Positions 12,619 through 31,308 of a stretch of 64,000 nt of DNA are shown piece by piece. Each line of letters starts with the position of its first letter. The stretch's first letter is position 1. Origin of the DNA: an uncultured cyanobacterium (GTDB lineage Bacteria; Cyanobacteriota; Cyanobacteriia; Cyanobacteriales; Cyanobacteriaceae); NCBI GenBank assembly GCA_963710605.1, contig CAVQBA010000006.1, forward strand, positions 576,001 to 640,000, written 5' to 3'. Below the pieces are notes generated by a model. It saw only the letters and a program-made list of their open reading frames with translations. It had not been told where the DNA came from and did no database searches. The position numbers and the translations under genes were made by a program.

Positions 12619-14294
12619 ATGTCCAACGCTACCATCTACGGAAATTTAAAAGGTCTTAAGCCCAGTCAACTTAAACAATTACGTAAATTATACGAGCAAA
12701 ATGTCCAAAACGATCGTTTAACGACGGCAGATTTAGCCCAAAGAATAGCCATAATCAGTACCGAACTTAAAAAGCCTGTCAGCATCTATTTAAATCGTCG
12801 TGGTCAAGTGATTAGAGTCGGTGTCGGTACTCCTAGCCAAACACAGATTCCTCCTTTAGAATTACCTCGTTATGGTGCAAAACGCTTATCAGGGATTCGT
12901 TGTTTAGCAACTAATTTAAAAGGTAATCCACCTAGTGAAGCTAGTTTGACAGCGATGGTAAAACAAAGATTAGACGCTTTAATCATGTTTACCTTAACAG
13001 GTCAAGGTGTGATGCGTAAAGGCGGTGGTGCAAGCGGTTTTGTGCAGTCTGGATATTTAGCTAATTTATCACCGATACAAGATAGTCAAGAATATTGGCA
13101 AGTATCTCCAGCCCAAGAATTAGATGATATTGCAGAACAAGACTTTTTAGATTTAGTTAATAGTTTAGAAGCCGAATTTAGCCGAGAATATATCGCCCAA
13201 GAAGTCGGTGATGATCAAGAAAGAGTATTGTTAGTTGGTTTGATTGTTGATGGCATCGATGAAAAACAATTTGCTCAAACTTTACAGGAGTTAAATTTAT
13301 TGGTTGATAGTGCAGGAGGAAAAGTATTGGGTACATTAGAACAAAAACGCCCTCGCCCTCATCCACAAACTTTAGTTGGTGCTGGTAAAGTAGAAGAAAT
13401 TGCTCTACAGGTACAAACTTTAGGGGTTTCTCTTGTTGTTTTCGATCGAGAGTTGTCTCCTGCTCAAGTACGTAATTTAGAAACACAATTGGGGGTAAAA
13501 GTAGTCGATCGAACTGAGGTAATATTAGATATATTCGCTCAAAGGGCTCAATCTAGAGCTGGTAAATTACAAGTTGAATTAGCTCAACTAGAGTATCTGT
13601 TACCTCGCTTAACAGGTAGAGGGGCGGCAATGTCTCGTTTAGGTGGTGGTATCGGTACAAGGGGCCGGGGGAAACTAAGCTAGAAACCGAAAGAAGGGCG
13701 ATTCAGAAAAGAATTACTCGCTTACAACAAGAAGTAAATCAGTTACAATCTCATCGCTCTCGACTAAGACATCAACGTCAAAAACAAGAAATACCAACAG
13801 TAGCGATCGTCGGTTATACTAATGCTGGTAAATCAACATTGATCAATACTTTAACTAACGCTGAAGTTTATACAGCGAATCAACTTTTTGCTACTTTAGA
13901 TCCTACCACTCGCCGACTCTCGATTACAAATCAGGAAACAGGGGAATTTCGTACCCTTTTATTAACTGATACTGTGGGTTTTATTCATGAATTACCACCT
14001 CAGTTAGTCGATGCTTTTCGGGCAACTTTAGAAGAAGTAAGCGAAGCTGATGCTTTGTTACACGTGGTTGATTTATCTAATTCTTCATGGGAAAACCAAA
14101 TCAAATCGGTAAAAACTATTTTGGCAGATATGCCATTAGCACCAAATCAAGAATTAATTGTCTTTAATAAAATTGATGTTGCTGAAAGTGAAAATTTAGA
14201 AACTGCTAAAAATGAATATTCTCAAGCTATTTTTATTTCTGCTAGCGAACGTTTGGGTTTAGAGAATCTTCGTAGTCGTTTGATTAGTTGTTAA
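12619..14294 (+). CDS. hflX: GTPase HflX, split by a 1-nt deletion in a G/C run at ~13661-13671 (likely sequencing error)
   Basis: VVDRTEVILDIFAQRA, SRLGGGIGTRG|PGETKLE..., VGYTNAGKST, LFATLDPTTR, DTVGFI, NKID across two frames. Confidence 0.92.
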
Positions 14295-16900: not shown

Positions 16901-18034
16901 ATGCGTTTTTTTAAACTATCTATCTTCGATATTTATTTAATCAAAGAGTTAGTCCCAATCTTTATTTTTAGTGTTGCTATTTTTTCGAGTTTGGGAGTTT
17001 CGATTGCTACTTTATCAGATTTAAGTTACAAAATAACCAATTCTAACTTACCTTTTATTTATGCTCTTGAAATATTTCTGTTGAAAATTCCCGAATACAT
17101 TGCTTATGCTTTACCTATTTCGGTTTTATTAACTACTTTAATCACTTATAGTCGTTTGAGTAAAGATAGCGAATTAATTGCTTTTCGTAGTTGTGGTTTA
17201 AGTCTTAAAAGAATAATTATTCCTGCCTTGTTTTTAAGCATCTTAGTGATGATAATCACTTTTCTTTTTAATGAGCAAATCGTACCTCGGACTAATTATC
17301 AGGCGACTAAAATATTAGTAGCACAGATCAAAGAAGAAAGAACTTTCATGCTCAAAAGTGATATTTTTTATCCTGAATATGTCGAAATAAAAGAGGACAA
17401 TGGGCAAAATGTCAAGCAATTGAAAAGATTATTTTATGCTCAAGAATTTGATGGCTCAAATATGCAGTCTCTGACAATTTTAGATACTAAAAAATCAGGA
17501 TTAAACAAAGTAATTATCTCTGAAAAAGGTTCGTGGAATAACAAAAATAAAGTTTGGGATTTATTTAATGGTTTTGTTTATAATATCAGTGACGATCGAC
17601 TTGAGGCTGAGGGTTCGGCTTTTACCAAAATTCAAGTCGCTTTTCCTAAAACACCTTTAGATTTAGCTGTTAATAGTCGTGATCCTTATGAGATGAATAT
17701 AGCACAATCACAAGAGTATATTAAGCTTTTAAAATTACTTGGTGATGAAAAAACTATCTTAATGTTTGAAGTACGCACCGCTCAAAAAATATCTTTTCCT
17801 TTTGTCTGTATCATTTTTGGTTTAATTGGCTCATCTTTTGGTTGTCAACCTAATAATGCGAGTAAAGCAACTAGTTTTGGTTTGTGTGTAGCGATCGTTT
17901 TTGCTTATTATTTAAGTAGCTTTATTGTTGGTGGCTTTGGTTTAATCGGTGTAATCTCTCCTTGGATGGCGGCATGGATTCCTAATTTAGCTGGTTTGGT
18001 TATCAGTGGATATTTACTTAGTAAACCCGAATAA
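16901..18034 (+). CDS. LptF/LptG family LPS export permease
   Basis: LPISVLLTTLITYSRLSKDSELIAFRSCGLS; AAWIPNL. Confidence 0.9.
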   Translation: MRFFKLSIFDIYLIKELVPIFIFSVAIFSSLGVSIATLSDLSYKITNSNLPFIYALEIFLLKIPEYIAYALPISVLLTTLITYSRLSKDSELIAFRSCGLSLKRIIIPALFLSILVMIITFLFNEQIVPRTNYQATKILVAQIKEERTFMLKSDIFYPEYVEIKEDNGQNVKQLKRLFYAQEFDGSNMQSLTILDTKKSGLNKVIISEKGSWNNKNKVWDLFNGFVYNISDDRLEAEGSAFTKIQVAFPKTPLDLAVNSRDPYEMNIAQSQEYIKLLKLLGDEKTILMFEVRTAQKISFPFVCIIFGLIGSSFGCQPNNASKATSFGLCVAIVFAYYLSSFIVGGFGLIGVISPWMAAWIPNLAGLVISGYLLSKPE

Positions 18035-18128: not shown

Positions 18129-19040
18129 ATGATTAAAAAAACTTTACAGTTAAATGTTTTAGAAAACCCAGTTAGCTTAATTTTTGCTAGACATGAAACT
18201 TTTCATCCTCGTTGGGGATGGTTAAAAAAAGGTTTTGAAATGAGTAGTGTAGATTCTCATATATTTTTAGCTGACAACGCTCCAGTAAAATTGGGTGTAG
18301 GCAAAAATATGGTACGATTGCTCCGTTATTGGTGTCAGGCGTTTAAAATTACTAATAATGATGATACTCCCACTGAGTTTTCTAATAATTTACTAGGTGA
18401 TAATGGTTGGGATACTTATTTAGAAAATCCTGCTTCTTTATGGTTGTTACATTGGAATTTGCTTAAGCCTACTTGTACGGCTACTTCGTGGTATTACACA
18501 TTTAATCTTTTCAATGAAAATGAATTTAAAAAAGAGGATTTACATCGAGGTTTAGACAACTATCAACAAAAATTAGGTAAAGATGTGGCTCAATCTTCCT
18601 TAGATAAAGATGTAAGTTGCATTTTACGAATGTATGTAGAATCAAATAGTGATAGTCGTAATTTTATTGAGGATTCGATTGATTGTCCTTTTGTTGAGTT
18701 AGGATTAATTTATCAACCGAGTAATTCTAATTATTATTATTTTCAGGTAGGTAAAAAAACCAGTTTACCCGCAGAAATTATTGTCGCAACTTGTTTAGAA
18801 TATGCTAGTTGGGTAAGTGAGAGAGAAACAACTATTAGTGTTGCTAGATTGCTTTATGATAATAATAGCCCTGGTGTAGTTTTTAAATTATCACAAGAGG
18901 CTTTATATGAAGCTATAGAAATTGTTTGTCGCCGCTATCAAAATCTTGATTTAGCTGATACGGCTGGTTTGATTCAGTTGTCTTTTCCCGAAAAACCCGA
19001 ACATTTAGCTCAAAAAATTATTACCGATTACTATCAATAA
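18129..19040 (+). CDS. sspB: DUF4007 protein, SspB-like nickase
   Basis: FARHETFHPRWGWLKKG, LGVGKNMV..LRYW, D.YLENPASLWLLHW, DCPFVELGLI; operon context. Confidence 0.85.
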   Translation: MIKKTLQLNVLENPVSLIFARHETFHPRWGWLKKGFEMSSVDSHIFLADNAPVKLGVGKNMVRLLRYWCQAFKITNNDDTPTEFSNNLLGDNGWDTYLENPASLWLLHWNLLKPTCTATSWYYTFNLFNENEFKKEDLHRGLDNYQQKLGKDVAQSSLDKDVSCILRMYVESNSDSRNFIEDSIDCPFVELGLIYQPSNSNYYYFQVGKKTSLPAEIIVATCLEYASWVSERETTISVARLLYDNNSPGVVFKLSQEALYEAIEIVCRRYQNLDLADTAGLIQLSFPEKPEHLAQKIITDYYQ

Positions 19041-19148
19041 CTAGGAATGAGTAATGATAATTGATAATTGATAATTGATAACTAAGAATTTAACTCTTGC
19101 ATTTTGCCTCTTGCCCCTTTGCCCTTTTAACTTTCAGTTTATTTGTTT

Positions 19149-22100
19149 ATGACTAATTTTCAATTATCTCATTATTTTAGTTTAGATAGACGTTACAATA
19201 GATCGATTAATTTAGAAAGAGATATAGATGATTTATCAGCTTTAGATGGTTATATTTTAACTGATAAAGCGATCGATGTTTTAGGTAGAATTAGTAAAGG
19301 ATTGACAGAAGAAAATCAAAATAACTGTTGGACTTTAACAGGAGTATATGGTACGGGAAAATCAGCTTTTACACATTACTTGGTTTCTTTATTAGCACCA
19401 CAACAAAGCGATTTGAAGCAAGAAGCTGTTGCTATTACTAACAAGACTTTTTCTGCCGATATTTCTGAGGATAATTCATATAATAAACTGATTCATACAC
19501 TATCACAAAGAAATCTATTTAGAGCAGTTGTAGTCGGACAAAGAGAGCCGATTACTTATACAATTATTAGAGCTTTAATTAACGGTTATAATTATTTTTG
19601 GCAAGAAGATAAAAATCATAAAAAAAATAAATTATTTAAGCAAATTAAACAGTTAGAAAAAAAGATAGATAGTCGAGAAAGAATAGAGAATATTCAAGTA
19701 ATTTCTTTAGTTGAAGATATTATAAAACAGACTCAATTAGATCTTATTTTAGTCTTTGATGAATTAGGTAAAAATTTTGAATATGCAGTTTACGATCGAG
19801 GAGCAGAAGATTTATATTTACTACAACAATTAGCTGAATTAAAACTAGTTGATAATCATCGAGTTTATATTTTAGGTATTCTTCACCAAGCTTTTTCTGA
19901 ATATGGGCAAAGATTAGCGAAAGTACAACGTAATGAATGGGAAAAAATTCGGGGAAGATTTGAAGACATTGCTTTTACTCAATCTGCCGAACAAATGATG
20001 CGTTTGATGGGAGAAGCGATTAATAGTCAAAATACCGATGCCATCGCTGTTAGTGTTAATAATCATACTGAAGAATGGTTCGATCGTTTACAAAAGATTT
20101 TATCGATCGAAAGTATTGATAAATCTGTCTTAAAAAGCATTTATCCACTTCATCCAATAACCGCTTTAATTTTACCCACTTTATGTACTCGTTACGCTCA
20201 AAACGATCGTTCTTTATTTACCTTTTTAACATCAAGTGAGCCTTTTTCGTTACGTAATTTTTTAGAAGAAACAGAAATTGTAGGAGATACTTTACCTACT
20301 TTAAAACTCGATCGAGTTTATGATTATTTTATTGAAGCTACAGGGCTGAATTTAGCTTCTCGCCCTAACTTACAAAGATGGATTGAAATTCATGATTTGA
20401 TTGCTGATGCTAAAAGGTTAGATGAAGACAGCATAAAAATATTAAAAACGATCGGTATTCTTAATTTAGTCACGATTACAGGAGAAGCAAAAGCAACTCG
20501 TGATTTAGTCACCTCTAGTTTATGCGACTCTCCCGATGAAAATACAATTAATTATTGGCAAGACAAAATTAATACTTTAATTAAACAAGGTTTAATCACT
20601 GAAATCAAAGCCTTAAATGAATTAAGAATCTGGCAAGGATCGGATTTTAATGTCGATCTTCAATTAGAATATTATCTAGATCGAGAACAATCTAGTTTAG
20701 TTACGCTACTAACTCAACTACGTCCTTTAAAACCGATCGTTGCTCAACGTCATAGTTATAAAACAGGTACATTACGTTACTTTGAAAGACATTATCTTGA
20801 TTCATCAGATGATTTGAATCAGCTTCAATGCGACAGTGAAAGTGCCGACGGTTATTTAGCCTATTGGTTAGATGATGAAATACCCTCTTGTTTTCCCACC
20901 CAAACTCGATCGGGATTACCTGTAATAATAATTGCGGTTAGTAATTTATCAACTATACTTTTATGGGCAAGAGAATTTTCTGCCTTAACTCGCTTGAATA
21001 AAGAAGCTAAAGAATTGCAGTCTGATGGAGTTGCCAGAAGAGAAGTTCGTTATCGCCTAGTAGAAACAGAAAAACATTTAAACGAAACCTTAGATAATGC
21101 TTTTGATTTGAATGGTGGTAATAAATCTTGGATTCAGGGAGAATTAGTTAATCTTACTTCGGCTAGTAAATTAAATCTACAATTATCTCGTCTGTGCGAA
21201 CAAGTTTTTTACCAAAGTCCGATTCTTTGGAATGAACTAATCAACCGTCGTAACCTAACATCTCAAGGTACAAAAGCAAGAAGAGAGTTAATCTCTGCCA
21301 TGATTAATAATCAAGAACAAGCTAAACTAGGTTTAACGGGATACGGTCCTGAAGTGACTATGTATTATTCTCTTTTACAAGAAACTCAAATTCATCGTCA
21401 TCAAACCGCTGATTTACAAACAGAAGAAGAAAGTGGATGGAGTTTTTATCCACCAAAAACTGAGAATAAAACTAACCCTAGTATAGAAGGATTATGGAAA
21501 GCGATCGAGGATTTTTGTCTATCTGCTACAGAAAAACCACAAACCTTAGATAAACTGTATCAGCAATTATCCGCACCACCTTTAGGGGTTAAAGAAGGAA
21601 TAATACCCGTACTTTTATGTGCCGTGCTACTCTATCATCGTGATGATGTTGGTATTTATCAAGATGGTACGTTTGTTCCTGTATTAGGGGATCATCATTT
21701 TGAATTATTGGTAAAAAATCCTGAGCGTTACGCAGTTAAGTATTTTGCGATTGAAGGATTGAGAGCAGAAGTTTTTCAAGAATTAGAAGCGATTTTGCGT
21801 AACCCGAAAGTAAAAACAAAGGAAAATATTCGCAATGCTACTTTATTAACTGTAGTGACACCTCTATATCAATTTGTCAAACAGCTACCTCGTTATACTT
21901 TACAAACCGATCGATTGAGTAAGGAAGCAACAAAAGTATTAAAGGCTTTACAAAAAACAATTGAGCCTGATGAATTATTATTTGAAGATTTACCCTCTGC
22001 GTTTAATCTACCATCGATCGGTACAGGAGAAGGTGATGATGGTGTTACGGCAAAAACTTTAAAAACTCAGTTAATCAATGCCTTAAGAGAAATTAACCGT

Positions 22101-22628
22101 GCTTATGAGACTCTTTTAAATGAGTGTCAATCCTTACTGAAAGATGCTTTTGCGGTGAGTATTGAAGAGAAAAAACTCAGAGAAGATTTACAAACAAGGG
22201 CTAATTATTTAACAGATAAATGTGTCGAACCGATTTTAAAGCGTTTTACTCAAGCTGTAGTTGATGAATCTAAAAACGATCGGCAATGGTTAGAATCTTT
22301 AGTGATGATTATAGCTGATAAACCATCCGAATCTTGGACAGATGAAGATTTTAGTATCTTTGAACTCAATTTAGCTGATGTTGCCCGTCGCTTTGAGAAT
22401 TTAGAAGTATTACAAAAAGAAGTTAAAGTCGATAATAACAGTATCTCTGCCCGACGTATTACCGTAACCCGCCCCGATGGTCAAGAAACAAATAGGATGG
22501 TGTGGATAGACAAAGAAAGAGATTCGCAAGCAGAAGAATTAGTTAATGAAATATTACAAAAATTACCAAAAGACCAACAGTTAAGAGAAACAATCCTCGC
22601 TAAACTCACAGAGCGACTTTTCCTGTAG
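19149..22628 (+). CDS. sspC: Large P-loop ATPase, SspC-like
   Basis: RSINLERD, Walker A GVYGTGKS, Walker B LVFDELGK, EWEKIRGRF, YPLHP, AQNDRSLFTFL. Confidence 0.82.
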   Translation: MTNFQLSHYFSLDRRYNRSINLERDIDDLSALDGYILTDKAIDVLGRISKGLTEENQNNCWTLTGVYGTGKSAFTHYLVSLLAPQQSDLKQEAVAITNKTFSADISEDNSYNKLIHTLSQRNLFRAVVVGQREPITYTIIRALINGYNYFWQEDKNHKKNKLFKQIKQLEKKIDSRERIENIQVISLVEDIIKQTQLDLILVFDELGKNFEYAVYDRGAEDLYLLQQLAELKLVDNHRVYILGILHQAFSEYGQRLAKVQRNEWEKIRGRFEDIAFTQSAEQMMRLMGEAINSQNTDAIAVSVNNHTEEWFDRLQKILSIESIDKSVLKSIYPLHPITALILPTLCTRYAQNDRSLFTFLTSSEPFSLRNFLEETEIVGDTLPTLKLDRVYDYFIEATGLNLASRPNLQRWIEIHDLIADAKRLDEDSIKILKTIGILNLVTITGEAKATRDLVTSSLCDSPDENTINYWQDKINTLIKQGLITEIKALNELRIWQGSDFNVDLQLEYYLDREQSSLVTLLTQLRPLKPIVAQRHSYKTGTLRYFERHYLDSSDDLNQLQCDSESADGYLAYWLDDEIPSCFPTQTRSGLPVIIIAVSNLSTILLWAREFSALTRLNKEAKELQSDGVARREVRYRLVETEKHLNETLDNAFDLNGGNKSWIQGELVNLTSASKLNLQLSRLCEQVFYQSPILWNELINRRNLTSQGTKARRELISAMINNQEQAKLGLTGYGPEVTMYYSLLQETQIHRHQTADLQTEEESGWSFYPPKTENKTNPSIEGLWKAIEDFCLSATEKPQTLDKLYQQLSAPPLGVKEGIIPVLLCAVLLYHRDDVGIYQDGTFVPVLGDHHFELLVKNPERYAVKYFAIEGLRAEVFQELEAILRNPKVKTKENIRNATLLTVVTPLYQFVKQLPRYTLQTDRLSKEATKVLKALQKTIEPDELLFEDLPSAFNLPSIGTGEGDDGVTAKTLKTQLINALREINRAYETLLNECQSLLKDAFAVSIEEKKLREDLQTRANYLTDKCVEPILKRFTQAVVDESKNDRQWLESLVMIIADKPSESWTDEDFSIFELNLADVARRFENLEVLQKEVKVDNNSISARRITVTRPDGQETNRMVWIDKERDSQAEELVNEILQKLPKDQQLRETILAKLTERLFL

Positions 22629-22642
22629 GGCGATGCACTGCC
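22625..22642 (+). repeat. 18-bp repeat, left arm of an inverted pair with 28524-28541
   Basis: gtagggcgatgcactgcc. Confidence 0.85.
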
Positions 22643-22792
22643 GAGCAAATAAACTGAGCAAGAAATTCTGTTAGTAAATTAAACAGTCAATACTCACTCT
22701 ACCAAGATTCAAATTATTCTCATAATTAATTTTGCTATGATTAAATTTAGATAAAAACTAATGAATAAAGACTAGATTTTAATCATTATGAT

Positions 22793-23101
22793 ATGCACTT
22801 AATTTCTGCTGGTAAACTTAAACAAATAGCATCGAAATACCCTGATGTAACGAAAAATATTCAGGCTTTTTGTAAAACTATCAAAAAAGCTCAGTGGAAG
22901 AATTTACTCGATACACAAAAAATATATCGAGATGCCGAAGCAGTGGAAAATTTTACTGTGTTTAATATAAAAGGTAATAAATACCGTTTAATTATCGATA
23001 TTGATTATGAAGAACAAATCGCATATTTTAAATATTTTTTAACTCATTCAGAATACGATCGGGAGAAATGGAAAAATGACCCTTATTTTAAATCAAAGTA
23101 A
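22793..23101 (+). CDS. higB: HigB-family toxin
   Basis: TVFNIKGNKYRLI..IDY...YFLTHSEYDR..W. Confidence 0.88.
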   Translation: MHLISAGKLKQIASKYPDVTKNIQAFCKTIKKAQWKNLLDTQKIYRDAEAVENFTVFNIKGNKYRLIIDIDYEEQIAYFKYFLTHSEYDREKWKNDPYFKSK

Positions 23102-23495
23102 TTATTTTAAGCTATTAGAAGAAACACAAATCATTCCTAAAATAATTGAAAATGAAGAAGAATATGAAAAATATTTGAGAGTAGCAGAAAAATTAATTGC
23201 TAAAAAAAATAATAGAACTTTAGAAGAGACTATTTTGTTAAGATTAGTCGTTAAACTAATTGAGGATTACGAAGAGAGTATCTATTCTATTTCAGATTGG
23301 TGTAATCTTTCAGCCCACGATATTTTAGAACATTTAATAGAATCTAGTGGAATTAAGGAACAAGATTTAGTAGGTATTATCGGCTCACAAAAAACAGTTG
23401 ACGAATTTATTAATAACCGAAAAAAACTCAGCCAAATTGAAGCACAAGCATTAGGAAACTATTTTCAAGTTTGTCCTAGCTTATTTCAAGATTAA
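23076..23495 (+). CDS. higA: HigA-family HTH antitoxin
   Basis: PKIIENEEEYE, LVVKLIEDYEE, C-terminal HTH; overlaps higB. Confidence 0.85.
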   Translation: MTLILNQSNYFKLLEETQIIPKIIENEEEYEKYLRVAEKLIAKKNNRTLEETILLRLVVKLIEDYEESIYSISDWCNLSAHDILEHLIESSGIKEQDLVGIIGSQKTVDEFINNRKKLSQIEAQALGNYFQVCPSLFQD

Positions 23496-23670
23496 GAGCA
23501 ATTATTTTCAACTAAAGTATAATCATTGATTTTCTACGATCGTTAAGATAATTATCGACAATATTTTACTTTGTATTGAAAGTCAATTAACATTTTTTCT
23601 TCCAACTCCTCTGCTCAGAATCTTGGTATCATACAAAAAGTAATAAAAAATTATCAAGTAAAACTCTTTC

Positions 23671-24471
23671 ATGAAAAGAAAGAAAACAAGACACGTTTTA
23701 GGCTTGAGTGGCGGAAAAGACAGTACAGCTTTAGCAATTTTATTACACAAAGAAATTCCTGAGATGGAATATTTTTTTTGTGATACCCATAAAGAATTGC
23801 AAGAAACTTATGACTATCTCGATCGTATTAAAGCTCGTTTGGGTATTAAAATTCATTATCTGTCTCCAGAAAGAGGATTCGATCATTGGTTAGCAATACA
23901 TGATGGTTTGTTACCTTCTTCTCAAATGCGATGGTGTACTGTCAAAATGAAAATTAAACCATTTGAAAAATTTGTGGGTGATGACAAGGCTATTAGTTAT
24001 ATCGGTATTCGTGCCGATGAAAATCGTGAGGGTTATATTTCGACTAAACCAAATATTAAGCCTGTATTCCCTTTTAAAGAAAGAGGTTTAGTTAAAGCAG
24101 ATATTCTACGACTATTAGAAGATAGTGGTATTGGTTTACCTGATTATTATCGTTGGCGAAGTCGCTCAGGTTGTTTTTTCTGTTTCTTTCAACGTAAGTA
24201 TGAATGGGTGATGTTAGCACAAGAGCATCCTGATTTGTTTGCTCAAGCCGTTGAATATGAGTCTAATCATAGAGATGGTAGAACTTATACTTGGACAGAA
24301 GGAGAGACATTATTGGAGCTTTTAGAGCGGAAAGATGAAATCATAACACATCATGAAAAAGCAATGTCTCGTAATCAAAAAGTATTACCGAATCGTCCTT
24401 TATCTGAATCATTGGAAGATGTTTTAAGTGAAGAAGATTCAGATTTACCTTGTTTAGTTTGCAATATATAG
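23671..24471 (+). CDS. sspD: PAPS reductase-family protein, SspD-like
   Basis: PP-loop SGGKDS, RWCT, GIRADE, RSGCFFCFFQ, C-terminal CxxC. Confidence 0.85.
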   Translation: MKRKKTRHVLGLSGGKDSTALAILLHKEIPEMEYFFCDTHKELQETYDYLDRIKARLGIKIHYLSPERGFDHWLAIHDGLLPSSQMRWCTVKMKIKPFEKFVGDDKAISYIGIRADENREGYISTKPNIKPVFPFKERGLVKADILRLLEDSGIGLPDYYRWRSRSGCFFCFFQRKYEWVMLAQEHPDLFAQAVEYESNHRDGRTYTWTEGETLLELLERKDEIITHHEKAMSRNQKVLPNRPLSESLEDVLSEEDSDLPCLVCNI

Positions 24472-24503
24472 AAGTTTAATAATTCAACAAAAACTACAAA
24501 GAT

Positions 24504-26813
24504 ATGGTAGATATTTCAACTGCTTTTAATACATCTAGCGAAAAAGTTTCAGATTTTTTTAGAAGACCAGGAATCAGCTTTTATATTCCTTTGTATCAAA
24601 GAGAGTACAGCTGGGATAAAGAAAATATAGATCAATTGATAGAAGATATTTGTTCTGGTGTAGAATCTGTTTTAGATAATGACGGAACGATTCATTTTTT
24701 AGGTGCAATTATACTTGTTACAGAAAAAAATGCCAAAGTAAATATTAATCCAAGAGATAATCGTGCGTTACCTCCAAGAATCGATAATGTTATTGATGGA
24801 CAACAACGTATTTCAACAATTGCTTTACTTTCTTGTTTACTTTATCAAAAACTTTACGAAAACAGACAAAAATTAATTAAAGATGATAGATATAGTGGTT
24901 TTATTGAAGCTATTGACGAATATCTAAGAACTATTATCGAAGTTTTTTCTGTTGATTTGAATCGTGGTACACCAACGAGAAAACCAATTATCATAAGAGC
25001 CTCAATCGATGGTTGGACTTTTGATGGTGATGATAGTAACTATCAATCGGATATTTCTTCATTTATTGCTAGTTTTATAAGAGCTATTGAAGAAAAATTA
25101 AAATTTCCTAAGCCTCCAAATAATTCTTTGGTCGGAACAAATTTAAAAAAAATTAATTCTTTACTCAAAGAAGTTGAAAAAGCCTACGAAATAGAGCGAG
25201 ATAGTTTTCCACCTGCTTGGAAAATTTTGGAAAGCATATCTCAAGATGACTTGTGGAATTATGAAAGACCAGAATTAAAATCATTAATTAAAGAATGTCA
25301 ACACAAAATTGAATCTAAACAAAATATTTCCAATAAAGATAAAATAGCCTGTTCGCTAGTTCAAATTTTTGCGTTTTGTCATTATCTTTTAGAACGTTGT
25401 TGTTTAACGTTAATTGAACCTTCTTCCGAAGAGTGGGCATTTGATATGTTTCAGTCACTTAATGCAACAGGAACTCCTCTCACAGCATTAGAAACATTTA
25501 GACCATTGATTGTTAATTTTGTAGATTCCACTGGTGATAGTCAAAAGTTTAAAGGTTCAAAATCCAAAGAATATTTTTCTAACGTAGAAAAACTTTTTAG
25601 TCCTTTACTTAGTGCATCCAAGAAAAACAAATTGACAAATGATTACCTAACTTTATTTGGTACAACTTATGATGGGGGGAAAAAACCATCCAAACAATTT
25701 ACAGCACAGAGAAAATGGTTAATAGATAAATATAAAAACTGTAATACTTATGAAGAAAAAGAAGAATTTATAAGAAGAATGAGCGACTTAACTTTATATT
25801 GGGAAAATGTTATTAACTTTACCCCCCAAACATCTAATTGTATAAAAGGTACAGAATATATAGATGAACAAAATAAAAAAATAGCCGCTTTGTGTGTACT
25901 TTATCTTCAGGATGCAAATCATAAAATGGCTCATACGATATTAAGTCGATTCTATAGCTTAATACTAAGATGCTCATCCGAACATGAAGATAAGAATTTA
26001 GCTCAAAAATTTGTATCTGCCACAAAAAAAGTTACAGCCTTTTTTACTCTCTGGCGTTCTGCATTGCCAAATACAGGTTTAGATGAAATGTACAGAAGGT
26101 TACTACGTGAAAGTATGTCGTGGGAAAAAGGAAATTCTCAATTGAATGAAGAAGAACTGAAAAAATACTTCCAAAAGGTACTCGAAGAGAAAGGAATAGG
26201 AACAAAAGATGAGTGGAAAAACAAGGCAATTAACTATTTGAGGTACGACAATGCTAAAGCGATATGTAAATTTACACTATTAGTTACGGCACAGGACACT
26301 ATATGCGATCCTGATGAGCTTGGCTTGATTAAAAAAGGTATTGACGGTTCTTCTCCATTGTATTTAGAATCCAACAAATGGACTTCACAAGATCTTAATA
26401 GCATTGAACATATAGCTCCAAGAGAAAAAAAAGATGGAAAAGACTGGGATAATGCTCTCTATACTGCTAAAGAAGATTACCATCAAATTGGAAATTTAAC
26501 TTTGTTACCTACCGAAATTAATAGTTCTGCAAGTAATAAGGGATGGATTGAAAAACTTATTTATTATCAACACTTGGCAGAAAATGATCCAGATAAATTA
26601 TCTGCATTAAAGCAAAAAGCAGTTGAAAATGGAATTGAGTTAAGGGATTCTACAATCAATCTACTCACTAACGCATCATATCAACACCATATTAAACCTA
26701 TAGTTAAATTAGGAGAGCAAGGAAAATGGGATAAAATATTTGTAGAAAAAAGAACAGAAAGAATTTGCGACATTTTGTGGGAAAAAATGTATCAATGGTT
26801 CAATCAAAAATAG
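24504..26813 (+). CDS. sspE: DUF262 NTPase + DUF1524 HNH nickase, SspE-like effector
   Basis: 769 aa; IPLYQREYSW, VIDGQQR, FQSLNATG.PL, SIEHIAP, IGNLTLLP..INSS. Confidence 0.85.
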   Translation: MVDISTAFNTSSEKVSDFFRRPGISFYIPLYQREYSWDKENIDQLIEDICSGVESVLDNDGTIHFLGAIILVTEKNAKVNINPRDNRALPPRIDNVIDGQQRISTIALLSCLLYQKLYENRQKLIKDDRYSGFIEAIDEYLRTIIEVFSVDLNRGTPTRKPIIIRASIDGWTFDGDDSNYQSDISSFIASFIRAIEEKLKFPKPPNNSLVGTNLKKINSLLKEVEKAYEIERDSFPPAWKILESISQDDLWNYERPELKSLIKECQHKIESKQNISNKDKIACSLVQIFAFCHYLLERCCLTLIEPSSEEWAFDMFQSLNATGTPLTALETFRPLIVNFVDSTGDSQKFKGSKSKEYFSNVEKLFSPLLSASKKNKLTNDYLTLFGTTYDGGKKPSKQFTAQRKWLIDKYKNCNTYEEKEEFIRRMSDLTLYWENVINFTPQTSNCIKGTEYIDEQNKKIAALCVLYLQDANHKMAHTILSRFYSLILRCSSEHEDKNLAQKFVSATKKVTAFFTLWRSALPNTGLDEMYRRLLRESMSWEKGNSQLNEEELKKYFQKVLEEKGIGTKDEWKNKAINYLRYDNAKAICKFTLLVTAQDTICDPDELGLIKKGIDGSSPLYLESNKWTSQDLNSIEHIAPREKKDGKDWDNALYTAKEDYHQIGNLTLLPTEINSSASNKGWIEKLIYYQHLAENDPDKLSALKQKAVENGIELRDSTINLLTNASYQHHIKPIVKLGEQGKWDKIFVEKRTERICDILWEKMYQWFNQK

Positions 26814-26830
26814 TGAGCAACACAAAAACT

Positions 26831-27217
26831 ATGGATGTAATTACTTATACTCAAGCGAGAAAAAACTTTACTAATGTAATGAATCGAGTGTGTGAAGATC
26901 GTGTACCAATTATTATTACTCGTCAATCTCAAAAGCCAGTAGTCATGATGTCCTTAGAAGATTATAATGCGATCACGCAGTGCCAGCCTGAGCTGATCGA
27001 AGAAACATTATATTTATTACGTAGCCCTAAGAATGCCCAACGTCTTTACAAAGCCTTAGATGAATTAAAACAAGGAAAATATGAACAATATGAATTAATT
27101 GAATCTCAATCTAGTCAGCCTATTTCAGGACGTTTACGAGGACAATTCACTGTTAGTGATGATTTTTATCAGCCTGATGAGGAGTTAATCAAATTGTTTG
27201 AAGGAAAAGAAAGTTAA
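26831..27217 (+). CDS. Phd/YefM-family antitoxin with an 8-aa insert and a VapB-like C-terminal tail (chimera)
   Basis: MDVITYTQARKNF...PIIITRQ...VVMMSLEDYNAI[TQCQPELI]EETLYLLRSPKNAQRL; tail GRLRGQFTVSDDFYQP. Confidence 0.75.
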   Translation: MDVITYTQARKNFTNVMNRVCEDRVPIIITRQSQKPVVMMSLEDYNAITQCQPELIEETLYLLRSPKNAQRLYKALDELKQGKYEQYELIESQSSQPISGRLRGQFTVSDDFYQPDEELIKLFEGKES

Positions 27218-27219
27218 AA

Positions 27220-27357
27220 TTGTTTCATGCACTTCAAGCATCAAACCTAACTTTACATCATAAAGATCCTTTCGATCGTATGTTAATCGCACAAAGTCAA
27301 TTAGAAACAATGACTATCTTAACTAACGATAATGCTTTTAACTCTTATCAAGTATAA
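27220..27357 (+). pseudogene. C-terminal remnant of a PIN/VapC toxin
   Basis: Manual translation ...LTLHHKDPFDRMLIAQSQLETMTILTNDNAFNSYQV*; N-terminal two thirds missing. Confidence 0.8.
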
Positions 27358-27362
27358 ATATT

Positions 27363-28511
27363 ATGGTAGCGAATACACATCCTATTTATCTGGACTATCA
27401 TTCAACAACCCCCGTCGATCGTCGTGTAGCCGAAAAAGTATATGATTGTATGGTGAATCATTTCGGTAATGCTAGTAGTATCGACCATATTTTTGGCGAT
27501 AAAGCAAGACTTGCAGTCAAAAAAGCAGAGCAACAAATTGCCGATCTAATTCACTGTCATTCCTCAGAAATTATCTTCACCTCTGGGGCAACAGAAAGCA
27601 TTAACTTAGTAATTCAAGGATTATTACCCGATCGTATTATCGTCTCACCCGTCGAACATAAAGCTGTTATCGATACCTGTCAGATGTTAGAAAAAAAGGG
27701 TTTAAGTGAAATAGTCTGGTTAAAAGTAGATGAAAAAGCCAGAATCGACTTGAATCATTTAGAAGAGGTGTGCTGTGAAGGTGCAGATTTGTTATGTCTC
27801 ATGGCGGCTAATAACGAAGTAGGTAATATTTATCCGCTAGAAAAAATTGGTCAAATAGCTCAAAAATATCAAATTCCTTGGTTATGCGATGCTTCTCAAG
27901 CCGTCGGTAAAATACCGATCGATTTTCACGATTTAGGAATAACTTTTTTAACCTTTTCAGGACACAAACTATATGCACCCCTAGGAATCGGTACTTTAAT
28001 CCTCAATAAAAAAGTAGCTTTAAATTCTTTAATCTATGGTGGAGGTCATCAAAGAGGTTTACGATCGGGAACTCTTAATTTACCGAGTATTGTTGGTTTA
28101 GGAGAGGCTTGTTATTTACGTCAATTAGAAATGGAAGAAGATGAAAAAACGATCGCTTTATTGCGAGATCGATTACGATCGTTATTGCAAGCTCAAATTC
28201 CTAATTTAGTTGTTAACGGTGATTTAGATCATAAATTAGCAGGAAATTTACATATCTCTATCCCTAACATTCCTAATACTGCGGTTATTGCTCGAATTAG
28301 AGATAAATTAGCTATTTCTACAGGTTCGGCTTGTTCGTCACAGACGTTTTCTCCAAGTCATGTTTTAAGAGCAATGAATTTAGAAGATGAGTTAATCGAA
28401 AGTGCTTTAAGAATTGGAATTGGTAAATTTACAACTCAACCAGAAATTATCCAAACAGCAAATATTTTAGTTAATACATTTAGTGATATCTTGAAATTGA
28501 TTGAAGATTAA
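27363..28511 (+). CDS. sspA: Cysteine desulfurase (IscS/DndA-like), SspA role
   Basis: IYLDYHSTTP, FTSGATES, SGHK (PLP lysine), RSGTLN, STGSACSS. Confidence 0.85.
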   Translation: MVANTHPIYLDYHSTTPVDRRVAEKVYDCMVNHFGNASSIDHIFGDKARLAVKKAEQQIADLIHCHSSEIIFTSGATESINLVIQGLLPDRIIVSPVEHKAVIDTCQMLEKKGLSEIVWLKVDEKARIDLNHLEEVCCEGADLLCLMAANNEVGNIYPLEKIGQIAQKYQIPWLCDASQAVGKIPIDFHDLGITFLTFSGHKLYAPLGIGTLILNKKVALNSLIYGGGHQRGLRSGTLNLPSIVGLGEACYLRQLEMEEDEKTIALLRDRLRSLLQAQIPNLVVNGDLDHKLAGNLHISIPNIPNTAVIARIRDKLAISTGSACSSQTFSPSHVLRAMNLEDELIESALRIGIGKFTTQPEIIQTANILVNTFSDILKLIED

Positions 28512-28523
28512 ATTTTGATGGTG

Positions 28524-28541
28524 GGCAGTGCATCGCCCTAC
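28524..28541 (-). repeat. 18-bp repeat, right arm of the inverted pair
   Basis: ggcagtgcatcgccctac is the reverse complement of 22625-22642. Confidence 0.85.
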
Positions 28542-28545
28542 TATG

Positions 28546-28684
28546 ATAGTTAATTACAATCAGAATGAGACAATTTGGAGATTTTGTCTTTGAGTTTAAT
28601 TTATTAAACGGTATCTATTAGCGTAATGGAGATTTATTGCAAAGCGAGTTTTATACTGTCTCAAACTTAATTTAAACAACTATT
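28546..28684 (-). repeat. Dispersed MITE-like repeat family B
   Basis: 45-bp core 28598-28642 is a near-identical reverse complement of 36644-36688; ATAGTT...AACTAT ends. Confidence 0.6.
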
Positions 28685-31308
28685 AATTATTAATTACCAA
28701 CAAATCTTTTCCTAACTGAAATATTTCTTCAATCGCTAACATCTGTCCATCTGTGGTCATCATTTTATGATCGCTTGTTGCCCGTATTGTTTTACCGTCT
28801 TCTAACTCGTATTCAAAAACTTCTTGTTGACCTCGATCGTGCCATTGAGCTACTTTTTGAGTATAAACAAAACCATGACGATCGACACTATAAACTTCAC
28901 AATCTAATTTTTCGGTAACTATTTTACCGATCGCAATTGCTCCATATTCCACCGTCAACACTTGCGTATCGTAACTCAGACAATATTCTGCAAACTTAAT
29001 CATCTGCTCGAACAAATCTTCTGCTGTAAGTTGAGGCACACCATTTTTCATCGAACCATCAATAAAAATTTCTTGGTGTTTTTGCATCTCTGAGATTTTT
29101 TTCTTACCCATTGCTCGTCTGAGTAAATCGGCTTCTCCTAAAGAATAACCAGCCAAATCCTGAGCCATTTTCATAATTTGCTCTTGATAAACCAAAACGC
29201 CATAAGTCTCGTTTAAGATCGGTTTGAGTAGCTCATGTTGATACTCTATTTCTTCTCTACCGTGTTTACGATCGATAAAAATAGGAATTAAACCAGCATC
29301 TAATGCGACCAGGGCGATATAAAGCTAAAATAGAAGATATATCCTCAATTCCTGAAGGTTTCAAATCTTTAACAATCTGTTTCATCCCGTCAGATTCTAA
29401 CTGAAAAATACCTTCTAAATTACCGCTTTCAAGCAACTTGTGAGTTTCAGCCACATCAGGGGGTAACTTTTTACTCGTGCCTTTAGCCAAAATTTCTAAT
29501 GCTCTTCTTTCTCCTAAGGGTAATCGATCGACATCGATCGTAATATTCTGATTCATCTGAATTAAATCGGCTGTTTTTTGGATTGTGGTTAAATTTCTCA
29601 AACCTAAAAAGTCCATTTTTAGCAAACCTAAAGAATCAAGATCTTCCATATAATATTGCGTAATGATAGAACCATCATTATTTTTTTGTAAAGGTACAAT
29701 TTCGTCTAAAGGTTGACTAGAAATTACCACCCCTGCGGCGTGAACACCAAAAGTTTTATTCATTCCTTCAATCCGCATCGCCATATCTAACCATCGCTTG
29801 ACATGAGGCTCATTGTCGTATCTTTCTTTAAATTCAGGCGAGGGGCTATCATCAGAAATCATTACCTTGAGTTTGGCGGGTTTACCACGGGCTACAGGAA
29901 TCATTTTCGCCATCATATCCGACTCAGAATAAGGCACACCGATAACTCTGGCTACATCTTTAAGTACGGCTTTAGAAGTCATACGGTTAAAGGTGATAAT
30001 TTGAGCAACTTTTTCTTTGCCATATGTGTCGGTGACATATTGGATCATTTGATCTCTTTTGTCGATACAAAAATCAGTATCAACGTCAGGCATTGATTTA
30101 CGTTCGGGGTTCAAAAATCTCTCGAAGAGTAAACCATGATAAACTGGATCGATATTAGTAATTCCTAAAGCATAAGCTACTAATGAACCTGCGGCTGAAC
30201 CTCTACCGGGCCCTACTGGTATATTATTATCACGAGCATATTTAATATAATCCCAGACAACTAAAAAATAAGTACAAAAACCCATTTGTTCAATCATCTT
30301 CAATTCGTATTCTAATCGTTCTCGGTATTCGGAGGTGATTTCGTTTTTTTGTTGACAATTAAATCGATCGAGTAAACCTAACCACGTCACTTCCTCTACA
30401 TAACTTTCAGCAGTATGCCCTGCGGGTATATCAAAATCAGGTATTCTTGGTTCACCTAAAACATTGTAAGGTTTAATTTTATCGGCAACTTCTAAGGTAT
30501 TTGCTAAGGCTTGTTCGATCGTTTCTGGTTCTAAATGATCTTGAAATAACGATCGCATCTCTTCTGCTGATTTGAGATATTCTGTCCCTGAGTATCTTAA
30601 TCTTTTGATTTCGGAGATGTCTTTTTTGGTTTGAATACAAATCAAAGCATCATGGGCTTCTACGTCGTTACAAGATATAAAATGAGAATCGTTAGTCGCA
30701 ATTATTTTGATTCCTAGTTTTTGACTGATATTGACTATTTCGAGGTTGACAATTCGGTCTTCTTGTGAGCCATGATCTTGTATTTCTAAATAAAAATCAT
30801 CACCAAATAATTTTTTATACCATTTAGCGGTGTCTCTGGCTTCTTTAAAATCTCCTTTAAGTATGTACTGCGGAATTTCTCCACCCAAACAACCACTAGT
30901 AACGATTAAACCTTCGTGATATTCGGTTAGTAATTCTTTGTTGATGCAAGGACGAGAAAAGATACCTGCACCTTGTACACCTTCTAATTGAGAGATGGTA
31001 GTGAGTTTGACTAAATTTTGATAACCTTTTTTGTCTTTAGCTAAAACAACTTGATGGTATTTACGAATTTTTTTGTGTTTAACGCCAATGTCTCCATTAA
31101 TGACATACATCTCGTTACCGATGATCGGTTTGATACCTTTATTCATACAGTTTTTGATCAGTTGAATCGCCCCATACATGACTCCGTGGTCAGTAATGGC
31201 GATCGCTGGCATTTCTAGTTCGATCGCTCTATTGACTAGATCAGGAATTTGAGATGCTCCATCTAGAAGGCTGTAATCGGTATGAACGTGTAAACCTACA
31301 AAAGACAT
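28683..31308 (-). CDS. dnaE: DNA polymerase III alpha, N-terminal half (DnaE-N) with split intein; apparent +1 frameshift at ~29306
   Basis: PHP domain [61 protein letters not shown] across frames; ends KFAEY-CLSY. Confidence 0.95.
28686..28982 (-). other. DnaE N-intein (99 aa) of the trans-splicing split intein
   Basis: [14 protein letters not shown]...[28 protein letters not shown]. Confidence 0.95.

Follow-up and report, generated by a model that had tools for sequence, protein, structure and literature searches.

In the characterised systems that place phosphorothioate (PT) on a single strand of the DNA, the modified motif is CpsCA. The locus discussed here lies at positions 18,129 to 28,511 of a 64,000-nucleotide stretch of DNA from an uncultured cyanobacterium (contig CAVQBA010000006.1 of assembly GCA_963710605.1; this whole stretch is called the window), and its closest described relatives are the SspABCD-SspE systems of Vibrio cyclitrophicus FF75, E. 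coli 3234/A (sspBCDE), and Streptomyces yokosukanensis (PMC9646914, PMC13251355, PMC7188994), with which it has all five genes in common. According to the accessible parts of the respective papers, an SspA-SspD complex and sulfur transfer were shown (PMC7188994), nicking by SspB is required for single-strand PT (PMC8092258), and a PT-stimulated GTPase licenses the HNH domain of SspE (PMC13251355). These steps were shown in Vibrio, E. coli, and Streptomyces systems, and we infer them here from conserved residues: SspA would draw sulfur from cysteine and hand it to SspD; the choice and nicking of one strand would fall to SspB together with the SspC ATPase, with sulfur entering the backbone; and SspE would sense the PT mark, hydrolyse GTP, and nick phage DNA. 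Our reading, to which we assign a probability of roughly 0.8 on sequence grounds, is that the locus is an intact SspABCD-SspE system in the gene order usual for cyanobacteria, and that the toxin-antitoxin (TA) genes within it are passengers, not mechanistically coupled to PT. As such it adds one more intact cyanobacterial locus of a known system.

The five core genes

The source genome (3.93 Mb in 7 contigs, 84.9% complete) carries the locus as eight co-oriented open reading frames (ORFs) on the + strand, in the series (5' to 3') sspB, sspC, higB-higA, sspD, sspE, a TA remnant, and sspA. They are flanked on the left by an LptF/LptG permease gene (16901-18034) and on the right by dnaE-n (28683-31308, - strand). 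An earlier note on this DNA had listed the same ORFs, orientation, and flanks, all of which agree with our coordinates, and had described a complete but rearranged defence island. Completeness is supported by the profile search that the note proposed: PADLOC models for Ssp proteins assign all five core genes (sspA in a tie with DndA), and SspE and SspA retain their known catalytic residues.

The first gene, sspB (18129..19040, +), encodes a DUF4007 protein of 303 amino acids (aa), the DNA-binding/nicking specificity subunit (PADLOC SspB 5.6e-121; PF13182 1.8e-101). The 1161-aa ATPase encoded by sspC (19143..22628, +) scores 1459 bits with the PADLOC SspC model versus 470 with the best BrxC model; it carries a Walker A motif (GVYGTGKS at 67) and a Walker-B-like motif (VFDE at 204), and is colinear with an ortholog from the host family (genome G014; 60% identity over the full length). 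SspD (266 aa; 23671..24471, +) is a PP-loop/PAPS-reductase-like protein (PF01507) that matches the PADLOC SspD model at 1.6e-113 and 377 bits, versus 50 bits for BrxP and 36.5 bits for DndC. It has the PP-loop SGGKDS at 13 and the cysteine motifs RWCT, GCFFCF, and CLVC, and its nearest named relatives are all cyanobacterial.

The putative effector gene sspE (24504..26813, +) encodes a 769-aa DUF262 GTPase and HNH nickase (PADLOC SspE 1095 bits; Pfam GmrSD_N and GmrSD_C) in which the motifs DGQQR (residues 98-102) and EHIAP (635-639) are intact, as the earlier note had it. Residues 3-767 align with the E. coli SspE structure 20yv (818 aa; E 1e-105), and the protein also aligns end to end with the Streptomyces SspE structures 6jiv/7drs (4e-79). 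The accessible part of PMC13251355 gives Y63, R133, and N724 as essential in E. coli SspE; in the alignment to 20yv these correspond to Y31, R102, and N673, so that the equivalents of the PT-sensing Tyr, the GTPase Arg, and the HNH Asn are all kept. The last gene, sspA (27363..28511, +), encodes a 382-aa cysteine desulfurase (Pfam Aminotran_5) with N150, Lys202 for pyridoxal phosphate, C324, and R350; N150, C324, and R350 correspond, matched by motif and spacing, to N150, C314, and R340, the essential residues that PMC7188994, in its accessible part, reports for Vibrio SspA. The PADLOC profiles are unable to tell SspA from DndA (437.1 versus 437.7 bits); at the level of identity, the protein is 60-73% identical to most cluster-linked desulfurases versus at most 41% to the paralogs in its own genome.

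Homologous DUF4007, ATPase, PAPS-reductase, and cysteine desulfurase proteins also occur in BREX type 4 (PMC12914056, PMC12839542), which these papers, in their accessible parts, define by brxPCZL. An assignment of the locus to BREX type 4, complete or as a remnant, could be argued from the matches of SspC to the BrxC-PglY model (470 bits) and of SspD to BrxP (50 bits), and from the presence of brxL in the effector slot of several family relatives. However, the Ssp models score 3-7 times higher, where the earlier note had named a better fit to BREX profiles as evidence against Ssp; SspE is present; and SspD is a stand-alone 266-aa protein without a DUF4007 fusion. PglZ, which according to the accessible part of PMC12839542 is kept in all type-4 BREX loci, has no match in the host genome at its 84.9% completeness (PF08665, 0 matches), and neither has BrxL (PF13337, 0 matches). 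Their absence therefore argues for SspABCD-SspE, and we consider the BREX assignment very improbable.

Gene order and two exchangeable slots

The order in FF75 is written as canonical sspABCDE, whereas here sspA comes last; further differences from the FF75, E. coli, and Streptomyces systems are the presence of higBA in the sspC-sspD gap and of a TA remnant that separates sspE from sspA. The earlier note had the position of sspA right, but its view of this order as rearranged and unusual does not hold. From 523 confirmed loci with an SspD relative we compared the best 80, including up to 10 kb per side, of which usually ~5.5 kb or less lies upstream of sspB. An SspA-like desulfurase follows sspD in 40 of these 80 loci (in 39 of them on the strand of sspD) and precedes it in none, many of the remaining loci being short contigs; sspA-last is thus the sole clustered order among these homologs, and a rearrangement can be rejected. 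One locus (L047) has the order B-C-D-E-A without any inserted gene of at least 60 aa, and a non-cyanobacterial one (L085) reads B-C-D-A. Within the host family, sspA follows sspD in 4/4 genomes that cover both (G009, G010, G011, G014). The literature we found holds no paper on the sspA-last layout or on TA genes inside ssp clusters, supplements aside: the accessible part of PMC8092258 places sspA "adjacent to sspBCD or elsewhere", and those of PMC10853773 and PMC8569181 do not address the order of the ssp genes. Such orders may already be listed in Table S2 of PMC8092258 or in the supplements to PMC12914056 and PMC12839542.

The typical cyanobacterial layout is B-C-[variable slot]-D-[variable effector slot]-A. 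This arrangement, in which the gaps hold small cargo, is normal for the phylum and can be derived from public genomes. The conserved ssp genes would anchor two slots whose contents are exchangeable; the second slot holds SspE in our strain. In 25 of 66 loci, sspC and sspD are more than 500 bp apart, with vapBC, phd, xisHI, Uma2, DUF4351, Fic, or a Tn7-like element in the gap; the scan for such cargo covered all 79 ORFs between sspC and sspD, 58 of the 169 between sspD and sspA, and the vapC fragment of the window. The sspD-sspA interval of the 80 loci serves as effector slot, with SspE in 14, SspH in 10, a helicase in 18, a GHKL ATPase in 19, an HNH protein in 13, and a DndB-like protein in 6. 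SspABCD-SspFGH (PMC8092258) uses the same writer module, and its sspFGH genes fill this same slot in cyanobacterial homologs; neither sspF nor sspH has a match in the host genome.

Several occupants of the slots deserve mention in their own right. A module of a DEAH/ResIII helicase and a GHKL/MORC-like ATPase, at times with a PLD protein, occupies the sspD-sspA slot in 18-19 of the 80 cyanobacterial ssp loci (L022-L024, L026, L030, L033, L052, L075, L090, and others), sometimes together with SspE; the host genome has no copy. An HNH protein of 374-383 aa is found in the sspC-sspD gap of 7/7 family relatives (L101:15777-16901, L103:12669-13793, L104:5694-6818, L106:10931-12058, L107:99-1244, L108:6622-7764, L109:9876-11027), directly before sspD wherever sspD is covered, and also near sspD in 13 of the 80 other loci. 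It has no match in the host genome, where higBA occupies the equivalent position. The effector slots of L101, L103, L104, and L109 hold either a ~786-aa DndB-like protein with BrxL, or a second DUF4007 protein with proteins of 1566 and 739 aa and BrxL, in the manner of Ssp/BREX hybrids. In Kamptonema (L054:3197-9809) a Tn7-like transposon (TnsA/B fusion, TnsC, TniQ, Fic) sits between sspC and sspD. The sspC gene itself is in two ORFs, broken at about residue 755-770, in G002, G006, G009, and G011; G010 and G018 have a longer version (L104-L110).

Toxin-antitoxin genes within the cluster

HigB would cleave mRNA upon decay of HigA. The higBA pair that the earlier note placed between sspC and sspD is indeed intact: higB (22793..23101, +) encodes a 102-aa RelE-like mRNA interferase (PF09907 9.8e-27; PDB HigB 5ycl/5ifg, E 3e-9), and higA (23076..23495, +) a 139-aa antitoxin whose nearest solved relative is the HigA of 5ifg (E=0.001) and which has no Pfam match at E<0.001. 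The two frames are uninterrupted, with the toxin first and a 26-nt overlap. The toxin-first order, the RelE-like HigB, and a HigA of ~138 aa are shared with HigBA of the E. coli type (5ifg/5ycl). HigB also matches the PADLOC PD-Lambda-2_A toxin model (1e-23); that system was rejected, as the 139-aa partner matches only positions 5-99 of the 402 in PD-Lambda-2_B and thus lacks its ~300-aa C-terminal part.

We find an extended -10-like motif, TGCTATGAT (22733..22741, +), 60 nt before higB, and another, TGGTATCAT (23624..23632, +), 47 nt before sspD. Such a motif precedes 33 of 78 sspD homologs versus a shuffled mean of 8.0, the genomes being related and hence non-independent; before sspC homologs it occurs in 6 of 59 versus 6.4 in shuffled sequence. 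A scan for sigma-70 promoters and terminators remained at chance level (50 versus 46.6). To judge from these motifs, higBA is probably self-promoted and sspD probably has a promoter of its own, and this putative internal promoter would let the C-D junction tolerate insertions.

At the sspE-sspA site, the earlier note was correct in seeing decay; what had been taken for one pair are the remains of two. An orphan chimeric ORF of 128 aa (26831..27217, +) consists of a complete YefM antitoxin (PF02604) fused in frame to a VapB/DUF2281-like tail. The tail gives weak profile matches (E 0.072 in Pfam, 0.048 in NCBIfam), and its identity is based on position and on resemblance to the host's own vapB. 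The fusion is followed by a vapC (PIN) pseudogene fragment (27202..27357, +) that retains the C-terminal third, or last ~45 codons (PF01850 positions 76-117 of 120, E 3.7e-4), and is 48% identical to the intact VapC of the host genome at C6:114 kb. No YoeB-like ORF of at least 20 aa was found in the sspE-sspA interval. Missing from the site are therefore yoeB, the head of vapB, and most of vapC, so that both toxins are gone. The yefM gene further carries a 24-bp in-frame insertion (8 codons, TQCQPELI; about 26976-26999), rejected as a sign of decay because the same insertion occurs in a normal-length 93-aa YefM of an unrelated record (P0002). It belongs to a HIP1-associated stem-loop repeat (window 26970-26999) with 13 family members in the genome, and resembles the SDR5 elements that are said to insert into HIP1 (PMC4390886, accessible part).

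TA genes inside the cluster are not unusual as the earlier note had supposed, for they occur in six of seven relatives of the host family (the count excludes G004, whose sspC is broken): MNT-HepT in G002; yefM-yoeB in G006; vapBC in G014; MNT and brnT in G018; PIN and vapBC in G009; and MNT-HEPN, MNT-HepT, and vapBC in G010. No TA gene was seen in the split cluster of G011, and HigB is in none of the family clusters examined. Across relatives the TA families differ, with vapBC, MNT-HEPN/HepT, yefM-yoeB, brnT, and mazF all represented. Such cargo is plentiful in the host genome as well, which has four full HigB, 13 Phd/YefM, and six PIN matches.

The earlier note had inferred that the TA modules may stabilise the island or provide an abortive-infection layer. 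In our reading, both slots would have gained type II TA cargo, namely higBA, still intact, and two older pairs now without toxins, and these genes would exert a generic addiction effect at most. We favour our reading because about three quarters of the complete clusters are without a detected TA gene (only 9-10 of 36 have one), the TA families turn over, and at our locus the toxins were lost first. Certain observations weigh against it. Over 36 loci spanning sspB to sspA, with 223 kb of non-core DNA inside and 233 kb outside the clusters, profiles seeded from the host genome only (the TA families themselves still being chosen from an earlier count) gave 13 matches inside versus 1 outside, in 9 versus 1 of the 36 loci. 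Likewise, Pfam PIN, Phd, or MazF domains (E<=1e-4) were found in 8 of 89 small ORFs inside (~12 unscanned) versus 2 of 108 outside. The nominal Fisher p values of the two comparisons, 0.014 and 0.045, overstate significance by kinship. This enrichment could reflect selection, beyond mere tolerance. Frameshifts nearby in dnaE-n and hflX are a further caution, as the fine details of the locus depend on a single assembly. A first inside/outside count (16 versus 1) was discarded as circular, since its seeds came partly from the same loci.

The enrichment, together with the TA genes in 6/7 family clusters, is what speaks for higBA and the relatives' TA cargo as a selected backup suicide layer: if SspE were blocked or escaped, host shut-off would free HigB, translation would stop, and the infection would abort, with any RNase toxin able to serve. 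The match of HigB to the PD-Lambda-2_A toxin model fits such a role, as do PIN/HEPN RNases embedded in BREX-related loci, proposed as backup suicidal effectors in the accessible part of PMC12839542. However, enrichment is expected of both a cargo hotspot and a selected backup layer; the C-terminal part of PD-Lambda-2_B is missing from the partner of HigB, few complete clusters have a TA gene, and both toxins at the sspE-sspA site are gone. Nor is HigBA linked to ssp elsewhere. There is no HigB-like gene in the best 80 ssp loci, and sspB-E are in 0 of the best 80 metagenome loci with a HigB relative, only 29 of which are at least 8 kb and many of which are too short to show neighbours. A HigA relative is present in 66 of these 80. 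A match to sspA among them (L194) was rejected as a desulfurase at 39% identity only, and a specific HigBA-Ssp partnership thus found support in neither direction. We consider the backup layer unlikely, and less likely than a cargo hotspot. We are equally sceptical of its broader form, in which cyanobacterial Ssp clusters would systematically recruit interchangeable type II TA RNases (HigBA; VapBC, MNT-HEPN, YefM-YoeB, MazF) into two fixed slots as an abortive-infection layer behind the PT-dependent nuclease, the family turning over and the function being kept. If the TA enrichment were indeed selected as a fail-safe, it would represent a testable layered defence inside a PT system, as proposed for BREX.

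TA modules stabilise chromosomal segments, and the pairs might be kept as addiction modules that retain a defence locus which is costly and frequently lost. Within the family, SspC occurs patchily (in 8 of 19 other genomes, one copy being broken), and in two relatives (G002 C3, G006 C5) sspC lies on a ~50-kb contig of a near-complete assembly, both in keeping with this explanation. Yet the sspE-sspA site decayed through toxin loss, the locus has no mobility genes or att sites, and most clusters persist without a TA gene. We hold addiction to be doubtful, albeit somewhat less so than the backup layer, and retain the passenger reading.

Inheritance, flanks, and other elements

In a quick SspA tree of 40 rows, the protein groups with four family members (SH-aLRT 99), and the top five SspB identities are likewise to family members; SspE, in a tree of 15 rows, belongs to a starred set that includes proteins of Oscillatoriales and Nostocales, apart from the only family SspE. 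With the patchy SspC, the affinities of SspA and SspB suggest that the writer genes were passed down within the family with frequent losses, and the effector was probably swapped. The label of island given in the earlier note is therefore doubtful: no tRNA, integrase, or terminal direct repeats were seen at the locus, its GC content (29-35%) is close to the 33% of the genome, and there is no mark of a recent island. Since lptF/G and dnaE-n are non-adjacent in all 18 relatives having both, no empty site can be demonstrated; in a metagenome-assembled genome of the same genus (G001) the contig ends 381 bp after lptF/G, and a thioesterase follows dnaE-n. With G001 as reference, dnaE-n of the window is split near 29266 by a 1-base insertion, and hflX is also split (13683-13839); these are probably assembly errors, because dnaE is essential.

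Elsewhere in the genome, contig C4 carries scattered Dnd genes: dndC (270419-271756, over the cut-off), a dndD-like ATPase of 688 aa (239626-241500, below the cut-off), and dndE (1158381-1158710). They may represent a second, Dnd-type PT system, and co-occurrence of Dnd and Ssp in cyanobacteria is reported in the accessible part of PMC12914056. Total PT detection alone is thus uninformative on Ssp, and the absence of PT from genomic DNA, which the earlier note would have taken as evidence against the system, is confounded. By gene content, Dnd and Ssp occur together naturally in this strain, which makes it useful for mapping the two marks in a cyanobacterium.

Finally, a dispersed 18-bp GTAG-type repeat, probably REP-like (3 exact copies in the genome, 6 within 2 mismatches), lies at the sspC stop (22625..22642, +) and in inverted copy just after the sspA stop (28524-28541), so that a perfect inverted pair 5.9 kb apart brackets higBA-sspD-sspE-sspA. 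Other repeats dispersed genome-wide (dozens of blastn matches) are located between sspB and sspC (19050-19110) and after sspA (28545-28690).

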